From the NCBI GenBank assembly GCA_030697825.1, contig JAUYOW010000146.1, positions 5,978 to 69,977 of the forward strand: DNA of 64,000 nucleotides, written 5' to 3'. Origin of the DNA: Gemmatimonadales bacterium. GTDB lineage: Bacteria; Gemmatimonadota; Gemmatimonadetes; Gemmatimonadales; JACORV01. Positions within the stretch are counted from its first letter, which is position 1, and every line of letters starts with the position of its first letter. The notes beneath the pieces were generated by a model, which searched no databases, had not been told where the DNA came from, and was given only the letters and a program-made list of their open reading frames with translations. A program made the translations under genes and the position numbers. Below, piece by piece: positions 2,297-4,450 of the stretch.

Positions 2297-2566
2297 ATGT
2301 CGTTCTTCCTCGTCGCGGGGAGCGTGGGGTTCTCGTTCTCGCCCATCGGCCGCGCCATCGCCCGCCGGCTGGGCGGCGCCGGGCCGGACGGCGAGGCCCA
2401 GCGAGAGGTCGCTGCGCTCCGCGAGGAAGTGGATCAGTTGCGTGGCGAGCTGGCGGAGATGCAGGGACGCGTCGCTGAGCTGGACGACCTGCACAACCGC
2501 CTCGACTTCGCCGAGCGGCTCATTGCCCAGGTGAAGACGAAGGGCGCCTTGCCGGGGGAGAAGTAA
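2297..2566 (+). CDS. small membrane protein with C-terminal coiled coil (paralogue 1 of 3); PspB-like architecture
   Basis: Same frame as track ORF 2213..2566, with the ATG at 2297. Hydrophobic N-terminus FFLVAGSVGFSFSPIGRAIARRL, heptad-like middle region, and the conserved C-terminal motif RLDFAERLIAQVKTKGALPG shared with the next two genes. Confidence 0.65.
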   Translation: MSFFLVAGSVGFSFSPIGRAIARRLGGAGPDGEAQREVAALREEVDQLRGELAEMQGRVAELDDLHNRLDFAERLIAQVKTKGALPGEK

Positions 2567-2568
2567 GG

Positions 2569-2859
2569 ATGCCGGTCGAGATGGTCGTCCAGGAAGTCCT
2601 GACGGCACTGATCGTGGGCGCGACCTTTGTCGGCCTCGCGTTCAGCCCGCTCGCCCGCGCGCTCGGCAACCGCATCATGCACGGTAAGGTTCAGCTGCGG
2701 GGCGCCGGCAGTGACGATCCGCGGGTGGACGAGCTGGCGGACGAGGTGTCGGTGTTGCGTCGCCAGATCGGCGACATGCACGAGCGCCTCGACTTCGCGG
2801 AGCGGATGCTCGCGCAGGCGCGCGACAAAGGCGCACTCGGCCCGGGAATGGAGCGCTAG
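2569..2859 (+). CDS. small membrane protein with C-terminal coiled coil (paralogue 2 of 3)
   Basis: Track ORF. TM segment LTALIVGATFVGLAFSPLARAL; motif RLDFAERMLAQARDKGALGPG. It starts 2 nt after the stop of paralogue 1. Confidence 0.75.
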   Translation: MPVEMVVQEVLTALIVGATFVGLAFSPLARALGNRIMHGKVQLRGAGSDDPRVDELADEVSVLRRQIGDMHERLDFAERMLAQARDKGALGPGMER

Positions 2860-2860
2860 C

Positions 2861-3214
2861 GTGCAGACGCCGGCCCCCCAGCTCCCGCCCATGCCGCCGA
2901 TGCCGCCGGAGTTCCACGGGATCATGACGGGGGACGACATCGTCACGATCGTGTTCTTCTCGCTGATGGGAGCCGCGGTCATGGTGTGGCTGGTCGCGCG
3001 CGGACCGATCGGGCACGCCATCGGCGAGGTCATCAAGCGGTGGCTCGGCGGCAGCCGTCAGGACGTGGGACAGCTCGACGACCTCAACCACCGGCTGGAC
3101 GCGATGCAGCACCAGCTTGGCGACCTGGCCGAACGGCAGGACTTCGCCGAGCGGCTGCTGGCCCAGGTGCGCCGCGACAAGGCCCTCCCTGGCGCATCGG
3201 ACGTTGTCGGGTGA
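2861..3214 (+). CDS. small membrane protein with C-terminal coiled coil (paralogue 3 of 3)
   Basis: Tail of track ORF 2627..3214. The GTG at 2861 is preceded by ggag, and an in-frame ATG at 2891 is an alternative start. TM segment IVTIVFFSLMGAAVMVWLVA; motif RQDFAERLLAQVRRDKALPG. Confidence 0.7.
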   Translation: MQTPAPQLPPMPPMPPEFHGIMTGDDIVTIVFFSLMGAAVMVWLVARGPIGHAIGEVIKRWLGGSRQDVGQLDDLNHRLDAMQHQLGDLAERQDFAERLLAQVRRDKALPGASDVVG

Positions 3215-3262
3215 AATATTCAGGCACGGCGGCGCGTACGGGCCTTACCGGAAGGAGCAGTC

Positions 3263-3658
3263 ATGGTCACACGTGAAGACTTGGAGAGCTTCATCGCTCG
3301 CCTCGAGACCGATGGCGTGCATTCGCGCGAGGTCGAGCCCGGTCTCTGGGTGCTCACCCAGAACAGTGACGGGCCGGAGGTGGTGGTCCACTTCAACCCG
3401 CCGGTCGCGGTGCTGCGGGTGAAGGTGATGGAGCTTTCCCCCAAGCAGCAGAAGGCCGAGCTGTTCCGGCACCTCCTCGAGCTGAACGCGACGGACATCG
3501 TGCACGGGTCGTACGGGATCGACGGCAGCAACGTCGTCCTTTCCGACACGCTCGAGCTGCAGAACCTCGACTTCAACGAGTTCCAGGCCAGCTACGACTC
3601 GATGATGCTGGCGCTGGCGTCGCACCTCGCGACGCTTGCCCCTTTCCGCCAGGCGTGA
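3263..3658 (+). CDS. YbjN / type III chaperone-like small cytosolic protein
   Basis: Track ORF with a strong RBS (aaggag 8 nt upstream). The 131-aa acidic protein has the pattern ..LLELNATDIVHGSYGIDGSNVVLSDTLELQNLDFNEF.. typical of the YbjN/CesT-like fold. Family assignment is from memory only. Confidence 0.6.
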   Translation: MVTREDLESFIARLETDGVHSREVEPGLWVLTQNSDGPEVVVHFNPPVAVLRVKVMELSPKQQKAELFRHLLELNATDIVHGSYGIDGSNVVLSDTLELQNLDFNEFQASYDSMMLALASHLATLAPFRQA

Positions 3659-3664
3659 GGCGTC

Positions 3665-4450
3665 ATGGGAATCTTTGACCGTTTTTCCACGGTGCTCCGG
3701 TCGAACCTCAACGACCTGATCTCGCGTGCCGAGAACCCCGAGAAGATGCTGAACCAGCTGGTGCTCGACATGCGGAGCCAGCTGGCCAAGGCCAAGCAGC
3801 AGGTCGCCTCCGCGATCGCGGACGAGAAGAAGCTCCAGGCGCAGGTCGAGCAGGAGAAGAAGCTCGCCGAGGACTGGGAGAAGCGGGCGATGCTGGCGGT
3901 GCAGGAGGGTCGGGATGACCTGGCCAAGCAGGCGCTGCTCCGCCACGCCGAGCATATGCAGAACGCGGCCCAGCTCGACGAGACGTGGCGCAAGCACGCC
4001 GCCGAGACCGAGTCGCTGAAGAACTCGCTCCGGGCCCTCAATGACAAGATCGAAGAGGCCAAGCGCAAGAAGAACATCCTCATCGCGCGGGCGCGGCGCG
4101 CGGAGGCGCAGCAGCGCATCCACGAGACGATGTCGTCGATGAGCGACAAGAGCGCCTTCGAGACCTTCGAGCGGATGAGCGAGCGCATCGAGCATAACGA
4201 GCGCAAGGCGCTCGCCTCGGCGGAGCTCAGCGAGGAGCTCGACGGCGACCAGTTGCAGCGGCAGCTCTCCCAGCTCGAATACAAGGCCGACGCCGACACC
4301 CAGCTCCTGGCCCTCAAGCAGCGTATGGGTCTTCTCGGTGCAGGGAAGGGCGAGGCCTCCAAGCAGCTCGGCGCGGGCAAGAAGGGGTCCGACATCCGCG
4401 ACGCCGAGGTCGTGGAGGAAGCCGACGACGAGCCGAAGCAGGGGGCCTAG
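3665..4450 (+). CDS. pspA: PspA/IM30 family protein (phage shock protein A-like)
   Basis: N-terminus MGIFDRFSTVLRSNLNDLISRAENPEKMLNQLVLDM is the canonical PspA/IM30 start. The protein is predicted to be coiled coil throughout. Confidence 0.9.
   Translation: MGIFDRFSTVLRSNLNDLISRAENPEKMLNQLVLDMRSQLAKAKQQVASAIADEKKLQAQVEQEKKLAEDWEKRAMLAVQEGRDDLAKQALLRHAEHMQNAAQLDETWRKHAAETESLKNSLRALNDKIEEAKRKKNILIARARRAEAQQRIHETMSSMSDKSAFETFERMSERIEHNERKALASAELSEELDGDQLQRQLSQLEYKADADTQLLALKQRMGLLGAGKGEASKQLGAGKKGSDIRDAEVVEEADDEPKQGA

Follow-up and report, generated by a model that had tools for sequence, protein, structure and literature searches.

A tandem array of single-pass coiled-coil proteins linked to pspA in Gemmatimonadota, likely part of an undescribed Psp-type module

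The window analysed here is a 64-kb stretch of DNA from a Gemmatimonadales bacterium (G+C about 68%), in which three tandem genes for small paralogous membrane proteins, referred to as A, B, and C, precede a gene for a CesT/Tir-like protein and a gene for PspA/IM30, the effector of the phage shock protein (Psp) response. The array family to which the small proteins belong appears to be undescribed, whereas the CesT/Tir-PspA pair is already known. The locus is likely an undescribed Psp-type module, in which the small proteins would probably provide PspA with a membrane docking partner of a new type. A preliminary description of this DNA had proposed an undescribed Psp-type envelope stress system; the array family, which lacks a curated model, and a promoter motif of the extracytoplasmic function (ECF) type are in line with that proposal, whereas the CesT/Tir-PspA pair had already been published (PMC11237479). 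The five genes are listed below.

2270..2566, plus strand: small protein A, the position-1 paralogue; hidden Markov model (HMM) score 81.5 bits, with the first members of other arrays as best matches
2569..2859, plus strand: small protein B, the middle paralogue; orthologue of member 3 in 5-member arrays and of member 4 in 8-9-member arrays
2861..3214, plus strand: small protein C, the last-position paralogue; HMM score 126 bits; GTG start
3263..3658, plus strand: CesT/Tir-like chaperone-fold protein; PF22550 (CesT_Tir_1), E = 1.9e-27, 96.2 bits (gathering threshold 27)
3665..4450, plus strand: PspA/IM30 (ESCRT-III superfamily) membrane-stress effector; PF04012 (PspA_IM30), E = 2.9e-48, 164.8 bits (gathering threshold 33.9)

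The small open reading frames (ORFs) lie on the plus strand at 2297-2566 (89 amino acids, aa), 2569-2859 (96 aa), and 2861-3214 (117 aa, GTG start), and are separated by 2 nucleotides (nt) and then by 1 nt. In the alignment of the three products, B and C are 49% and 39% identical to A, respectively, and 20 columns are invariant, including those of D-FAER--AQ and ALPG, in agreement with the tandem paralogy first noted for these genes. The G+C content at third codon positions (GC3) is frame-specific, at 0.84-0.96 through all three genes, and the ratio of nonsynonymous to synonymous substitution rates (dN/dS), calculated against orthologues from two related loci, is 0.30-0.79 for the three genes and 0.32-0.40 for B. 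The GC3 periodicity and the dN/dS values support the translation of A, B, and C.

For gene A, the start is most likely ATC 2270, and not ATG 2297, the first canonical ATG. The ATC start is preferred because of its spacing from the conserved Shine-Dalgarno sequence AGGAG (2257-2261), which ends 8 nt before it, because the start lies at the same position in relatives, and because later starts cut the transmembrane (TM) helix. The putative start codon is ATC in the window and in the related loci L003 and L009 and ATT in L001, L002, and L034, whereas L032 has GTG at this position. Starting the first gene at its next in-frame canonical codon would truncate the TM helix, and in L034 no such codon precedes this helix. 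In the sub-clade with a sigma-W-like promoter, described below, the first array gene has an ordinary ATG (MDKQ...). The AUC or AUU start of the first gene may reflect translational control that is sensitive to initiation factor 3 (IF3). A TTG start at 2213 (117 aa), which appears in some database gene calls, was rejected, because it lies within a window-specific leader insertion and is thus not conserved.

The likeness of A, B, and C goes well past what chance would give: a profile of the three matched 3420 database proteins at E ≤ 1e-3. All of the named hits are annotated as 'hypothetical protein' from Gemmatimonadota, and none carries a precomputed Pfam domain. In addition, when 1.84 billion representatives of 50%-identity clusters were searched exhaustively with the HMM, 2838 matched at E ≤ 1e-3, nearly all of 80-130 aa. 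Scans of A, B, and C with Pfam, NCBIfam, and PADLOC, and of 123 members with Pfam, yielded only sub-threshold generic coiled-coil noise, and no PADLOC defence-system model matched A, B, or C. A PDB sequence search gave generic coiled coils only, and a Foldseek fold search gave no match. No Pfam or NCBIfam model claims the small proteins. A search seeded with the singleton member L029 returned only 16 matches, none with a named source, so that spread outside Gemmatimonadota is neither shown nor excluded.

The logo of 276 family sequences begins with a short acidic N-terminus and an ~18-residue TM helix, followed by [SG]-P-[IVL]-G-[RK]-A-[IL]-[AG]-x-R-[IL], a linker rich in Gly and Pro, a stalk of ~35 residues made up of about five heptads, and the C-terminal motif E-R-x-D-F-[AT]-E-R-[LM]-L-A-[QK]-x-R. 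The arrangement first described for the three window proteins, namely an N-terminal TM helix, SP(I/L)xRA(I/L), a heptad segment, and a conserved C-terminal motif, is matched in outline by the family logo. In profile numbering, R77, F80, and R83 do not vary, and conservation reaches 94% or more at D79 and E82. The heptad a/d core occupies positions 60, 64, 67, 71, 74, 78, 81, and 85, and the five conserved residues lie off this core, suggesting that they form a conserved binding surface rather than contribute to core packing. The second most conserved element of the family is the basic amphipathic juxtamembrane helix (SPIGRAIxxRI) at the membrane interface.

The net charge changes from -0.82 on the N-terminal side of the TM helix to +2.5 on its C-terminal side, and the positive-inside rule holds in 99% of the 276 members, which predicts an N-out/C-in topology with a single TM helix. 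By the rules of signal peptidase cleavage, the proline directly after the A-F-S tripeptide, together with the acidic N-region, speaks against a cleaved signal peptide. In the AlphaFold2 model of A, the TM helix and a short second helix are followed by a long helix, which spans residues 31-82 and has predicted local distance difference test (pLDDT) scores of 93-98. Protein C has a proline-rich extracytoplasmic N-terminal extension, which is common to C-type proteins, and a C-terminal ALPGxSDVxG tail.

Relatives of the array were collected in a one-genome-per-species scan, which gave 30 loci, all from metagenome-assembled genomes of Gemmatimonadota; two exact-protein look-ups added 4 further loci, and a metagenome scan added 80 more with a G+C content of 0.65-0.74. 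The family occurs as same-strand tandem arrays, in which adjacent small genes abut or overlap by one base, stop and start bases being shared in L032 and L034. The 46 arrays that are complete on both sides contain 3 copies (3 arrays), 4 (5 arrays), 5 (16 arrays), 6 (13 arrays), 7 (3 arrays), 8 (4 arrays), or 9 (2 arrays), and one contig-truncated array gave at least 12 HMM hits. The triplication, which the preliminary description had regarded as unusual, is therefore the minimal form, at the low end of a range in which five or six copies prevail, and not an unusual expansion.

The members of the arrays correspond by position. Window A corresponds to the first member, and B to member 3 in arrays of five or member 4 in arrays of eight to nine. 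Window C corresponds to the last member of the 3-6-member arrays in the window's sub-clade, being orthologous to the last member in L001, L002, L003, L009, L032, and L034, and to the sixth, internal member of the 7-9-member arrays. As judged from these sequence relationships, the paralogues are ancient and kept in a fixed order.

The pspA gene comes after every genome-derived array for which downstream sequence is available, either with or without a CesT-like gene in between. It is likewise downstream in all 33 metagenome arrays with at least 500 nt of downstream sequence, usually via a CesT/Tir-like gene, and the CesT-pspA pair is kept in most related loci. These results indicate that both the C-terminal motif and its linkage to pspA are conserved in relatives, a point that the preliminary description had proposed to check. 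The upstream neighbours vary, with uvrA in many loci, at times with a dipeptidyl peptidase IV (DPP-IV) peptidase gene in between, a tetratricopeptide repeat (TPR) protein gene in L009, and a divergent gene in the window. An adjacent uvrA is missing in the window, L009, and L034, and the adjacency of array and pspA is never broken.

For the sub-clade of L008, L011, L012, L013, L017, and L018 (and L007), the array starts ~45 nt after the uvrA stop codon, and these loci have no CesT-like gene, so that the array leads directly into pspA. This arrangement suggests that transcription reads through from uvrA or begins at a promoter within it, and also that the CesT-like protein is dispensable.

The PF22550 match of the window's CesT-like protein is full-length (profile positions 6-128 of 131), and the protein is 91% identical in L001. 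It had been described earlier as YbjN- or chaperone-like; the chaperone part stands, as a predicted CesT/Tir-type fold, whereas YbjN itself was not matched. The PF04012 match of the PspA protein covers profile positions 1-217 of 220, confirming the original assignment of this gene, and its score against TIGR02977 is 135.9 bits, under the equivalog cut-off.

The region upstream of gene A contains the following features.

2145..2164, plus strand: upstream element CCTAGATTGGGCGCTTAGGC, directly 5' of the -35 element; near-invariant in the window, L001, L032, and L034
2165..2189, plus strand: ECF-sigma-type promoter-like motif; -35 GAAAC(TTT) at 2165-2172, 16-nt spacer, -10 CGTT at 2186-2189
2209..2255, plus strand: ~47-nt insertion in the 5' leader, with a CTACACC x4.3 tandem repeat at 2221-2250; Tandem Repeats Finder score 53

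The promoter-like motif of the window reads GAAACTTT-N-CGTT at 2165-2189. It fits the ECF-sigma promoter class, which is marked by AAC and a proximal T-tract at -35 and by CGT, in the variants CGTA or CGTC, at -10 (PMC5758882). In the leader alignment, the conserved footprint consists of CCTAGATTGG..CTTAGGC, GAAAC(TTT), a non-conserved spacer of 16-17 nt, and CGT(C/T/A). Of 79 non-duplicate arrays, 59 have GAAAC-N16/17-CGT at a distance of 20-230 nt upstream of their first member, whereas the remainder of these loci gives an expectation of 0.012 per array window. Within the 64-kb window taken by itself, the motif occurs at the chance rate, and the promoter argument therefore rests on its conserved position. 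One sub-clade carries the sigma-W-like form TGAAACATC...CCGTAC.

TAGATT is present at the same offset as the upstream element in L002, L003, and L009. The CCTAGATTGGGCGCTTAGGC element is close to invariant in seven loci that make up the sub-clade of the window. Where the ECF motif is missing, in the uvrA-proximal sub-clade, TAGGTTG, which is related to CCTAGATTGGGCGCTTAGGC, follows the uvrA stop codon. The CCTAGATTGGGCGCTTAGGC element may bind a regulator or extend the promoter. The ~47-nt insertion lies between the promoter motif and the Shine-Dalgarno sequence and is specific to the window, being absent from L001, L032, and L034 in the leader alignment.

Neither a sigma-70-like nor a sigma-54 site was evident before the array: a sigma-70 promoter scan gave 0 matches, and no match to the sigma-54 consensus TGGCAC-N5-TTGC was found upstream of the array on the plus strand with up to 2 mismatches. 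No conserved regulator gene stands beside the locus, the conserved upstream gene being uvrA. Rfam gave no credible match in the leader or in the ~500-700 nt between the likely start of the divergent ORF and the promoter motif. A weak sigma-54-like sequence, TGGCGCTGGCGTCGC, with 2 mismatches, lies at 3609-3623 inside the CesT-like gene, ~40 nt before the pspA start. The window contains 45 sigma-54-like matches against 57 expected, and this one is probably meaningless.

Downstream of pspA, two further genes and a pair of hairpins follow on the same strand.

4457..5581, plus strand: AI-2E family transporter-like membrane protein; PF01594, E = 3.5e-51; 6 nt downstream of pspA
5605..6672, plus strand: DUF1611 protein; PF07755 and PF17396; kept downstream in nearly all loci
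6674-6691 and 6729-6760, plus strand: two terminator-like hairpins; stem of 14 bp, 12 of them GC, with a T-run after it

The gaps from gene to gene after C are 48, 6, 6, and 23 nt. The AI-2E gene is found in most, not all, related loci, and the DUF1611 gene is probably the final gene of the transcription unit. The hairpins at 6674-6760 are the likely end of the operon, and the only other terminator-like matches within 2165-6672 are two weak 5-pair stems in coding sequence (2313-2327 and 4635-4651).

These features would best be accounted for by an ECF-controlled PspA operon in which hetero-oligomeric, bitopic coiled-coil proteins anchor or recruit PspA, a proposal to which we give an even chance. 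A single transcription unit, starting from the ECF-type promoter at 2165-2189, would comprise the three paralogues, the CesT/Tir-like protein, PspA, the AI-2E-type permease, and the DUF1611 protein. Each small protein, N-out/C-in, would present an acidic or proline-rich outer tip, the TM helix, the amphipathic helix, a flexible Gly/Pro linker, the heptad stalk, and the E-R-x-D-F-[AT]-E-R-[LM]-L-A patch. The paralogues would assemble as a hetero-oligomeric coiled-coil bundle, whose membrane-distal surface patch would form a docking site, as suggested by the non-core positions of the invariant R, D, F, E, and R and by the fixed order of the paralogues. The docking partner would most likely be PspA, or the CesT-like protein as an adaptor holding PspA. 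Under envelope stress, an ECF sigma factor would induce anchor and effector together, concentrating PspA at the inner face of the membrane. The small proteins would then be functional counterparts, analogous and not homologous, of PspB/C in E. coli, of LiaI in B. subtilis, and of YdjG/H from pspA-ydjGHI, an operon under the control of sigma-W.

A more far-reaching version, which we put forward tentatively and with less confidence than the anchoring proposal itself, is that the arrays represent a new class of PspA/ESCRT-III receptor. In such a receptor, a hetero-oligomeric coiled-coil stalk of 3-9 differentiated single-pass paralogues, encoded in a fixed order and switched on by an ECF sigma factor, would dock PspA through the R-D-F-E-R patch, either directly or via the CesT-like protein, and the cytoplasmic module, attached to other anchors such as a TM2 domain, would constitute a portable PspA-recruitment tag.

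PspB and PspC are small inner-membrane proteins encoded beside pspA, and are thought to sense membrane stress and to engage PspA; PspB is a single-pass protein with a cytoplasmic, leucine-zipper-like C-terminal part. The family shares with PspB the single N-terminal TM helix, the N-out/C-in orientation, and the cytoplasmic zipper-like helix, and to this extent the likeness to PspB drawn in the preliminary description is sound. The likeness is one of architecture, not of homology. A, B, and C had no match to PF06667 or to the NCBIfam PspB model at E ≤ 1, and PF06667 was absent among the 25 most-matched families when 123 members were scanned at E ≤ 10. In hhalign comparisons of the 123-sequence family profile with E. 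coli PspB and with a 21-sequence enterobacterial PspB alignment, the probability was 1.0-1.1%, the PspB profile being narrow (effective number of sequences, Neff, 1.4), as the PspB search had given close enterobacterial sequences only. The reading of the small proteins as divergent PspB was therefore rejected as a matter of homology, with Pfam, NCBIfam, and hhalign all negative. The locus also differs from pspABC in that the small genes are upstream, and not downstream, of pspA and number 3-9 differentiated copies instead of one. It has neither a PspF gene nor a sigma-54 promoter; instead, an ECF-type motif is present, and the divergent upstream ORF is without a Pfam domain.

For PspC (PF04024), no Pfam match was found for A, B, and C or the 123 members. 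The hhalign comparison with E. coli PspC gave a probability of 25.6% and a score of 25.7, confined to the C-terminal zipper at residues 78-102. This score exceeds the maximum of 200 shuffles (23.8) and the natural coiled-coil controls (9-18), but lies just above the 22.7 of an idealised zipper, and the similarity to PspC is marginal. The C-terminal module was also considered as a mimic of the PspA C-terminal helix, which is suggestive by eye and gave an hhalign probability of 2.7%; this was ruled out, because the 19 PspAs scored with the module HMM (-1 to 2.5 bits) did not rise above reversed or shuffled decoys.

In LiaI/LiaH of B. subtilis and PspM/PspA of Mycobacterium, a small lineage-specific membrane receptor is co-expressed with a PspA homologue. 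Both pairs are summarised in PMC11237479. LiaI and PspM are multi-TM, single-copy proteins without a long coiled coil, regulated by a two-component system or ClgR, and in these respects are unlike the present family; A, B, and C and the 123 members had no match to a Pfam Lia or PspM family. The pspA-ydjGHI operon of B. subtilis, which is under the ECF factor sigma-W, encodes membrane anchors of PspA (PMC8581546). It likewise combines PspA with integral membrane proteins under an ECF-type promoter, here seen as a motif only, and its anchors bring PspA to the membrane. YdjG, YdjH, and YdjI, which are zinc-ribbon/TM, TM, and SPFH proteins, respectively, are unrelated to the small proteins in sequence and architecture, and the present locus has no SPFH gene and places arrays of coiled-coil paralogues before pspA.

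The CesT/Tir-PspA dyad is a recognised neighbourhood theme (Ravi et al. 2024, PMC11237479). Here too, the CesT/Tir gene is directly upstream of pspA, co-oriented and 6 nt away, whereas band-7/flotillin, AAA+ ATPase, YqiJ, or polyamine genes accompany the pair in the published contexts. The main text and one supplementary file of that paper contain no Gemmatimonadota and no array of small TM/coiled-coil proteins, and a literature search on Gemmatimonadetes and PspA found nothing relevant.

Several observations weigh against the anchoring proposal. Its weakest point is the link to PspA, which is drawn from gene context in one phylum, and mostly one order, with a conserved wider block; uvrA and DUF1611 are also syntenic, so that the neighbourhood alone overstates functional coupling. 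The promoter was assigned by its match to a consensus, neither an ECF sigma gene nor an anti-sigma gene could be identified beside the operon, and the uvrA-proximal sub-clade has no GAAAC-N16-CGT motif. Ten family members are singletons located away from pspA. One of these, at 5426-5860 of L030 and not near pspA, is a TM2-domain protein (PF05154, 3.2e-20) fused to the coiled coil and an ERLDFAERLLA tail, which shows the cytoplasmic module to be portable between membrane anchors. Given the singletons and the TM2 fusion, the module may bind something other than PspA. In addition, the small proteins evolve much faster, being 55-77% identical to those of L001, whereas PspA and the CesT-like protein are 89-91% identical.

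The strongest of the rival explanations, which we consider unlikely, is that the small proteins are co-regulated but independent envelope-stress membrane proteins that do not bind PspA. They might, for example, stiffen or organise the inner leaflet, or recruit another cytoplasmic factor via the DFAERLL patch, and have a stress promoter and an operon in common with pspA only because both they and PspA are required in the same conditions. The occurrence of the same C-terminal module in proteins far from pspA and the much faster divergence of the small proteins than of PspA are expected on this explanation, as is the finding that the module resembles no region of PspA, and no known partner of it, in sequence. 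The adjacency of array and pspA in all cases, despite variable upstream, CesT-like, and AI-2E genes, and the tight gene spacing are what it leaves unexplained.

Somewhat less probable still is a role of the small proteins in sensing or negative regulation instead of anchoring, nearer to PspB/C signalling. The amphipathic helix would read defects in membrane packing or proton motive force. The coiled coil would hold PspA, the CesT-like protein, or an ECF anti-sigma factor in sequestered form, to be set free by stress. Such a role is suggested by the conserved basic amphipathic helix, [SG]P[IVL]G[RK]A[IL][AG]xR[IL], right at the membrane interface and by the proline-rich extracytoplasmic extension of the last paralogue, which could contact the wall. 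The weak zipper similarity to the E. coli PspC C-terminus, above all 200 shuffles, points the same way, but its score is near that of an idealised zipper (25.7 versus 22.7). The locus has no conserved regulator gene, and a sensor has no obvious need for 3-9 differentiated copies.

The linkage might also be inherited synteny without function, the small proteins being an unrelated, lineage-specific family lying between uvrA and pspA in Gemmatimonadales. In many loci, synteny extends just as well to uvrA on the upstream side and to DUF1611 on the downstream side, as expected if a whole chromosomal block is conserved, and all named sources belong to one phylum. Nevertheless, where the upstream side changes, as in the window, L009, and L034, the array stays adjacent to pspA; the promoter motif is upstream of the array and not between array and pspA; and the gaps are 1-50 nt with no terminator before pspA. 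We give this explanation a low probability. The notion that the small genes are chance ORFs, of which high-GC sequence gives many on both strands, is effectively refuted by thousands of homologues with invariant residues, by the GC3 and dN/dS (<1) values, and by the Shine-Dalgarno sequence and conserved start positions.

PspA, IM30, and Vipp1 form the bacterial branch of the ESCRT-III membrane-remodelling superfamily. To our knowledge, the targeting of PspA to damaged membrane is understood in only a few model organisms, each with an unrelated anchor (PspB/C, LiaI, YdjG/H, or PspM). If the anchoring proposal is correct, a large, uncurated, phylum-wide family associated with pspA would add an independent targeting solution, a multi-paralogue coiled coil with a sharply defined candidate docking motif, and straightforward binding assays and mutagenesis could then address what a PspA receptor must look like. 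Thousands of 'hypothetical proteins' from a soil phylum that is abundant yet little studied would gain a functional annotation as well. Should the connection with PspA amount to synteny only, the arrays would be no more than a new family of small membrane proteins.

Upstream of the array, a divergent minus-strand ORF lies within window positions 1 to ~2145 and runs past the left window edge; it encodes at least 550 aa, within up to 715 stop-free codons, has no Pfam domain, and has no counterpart upstream of the arrays in other loci. Beyond the operon, the ORFs at 7098-7916 and 7934-8266 are without a domain match. They are followed at 8302-8931, 1.6 kb downstream of the operon, by a fragment or gene of an MscS-type mechanosensitive channel (PF00924 beta-domain, 5.7e-19), and then by a TPR protein at 8935-10557.

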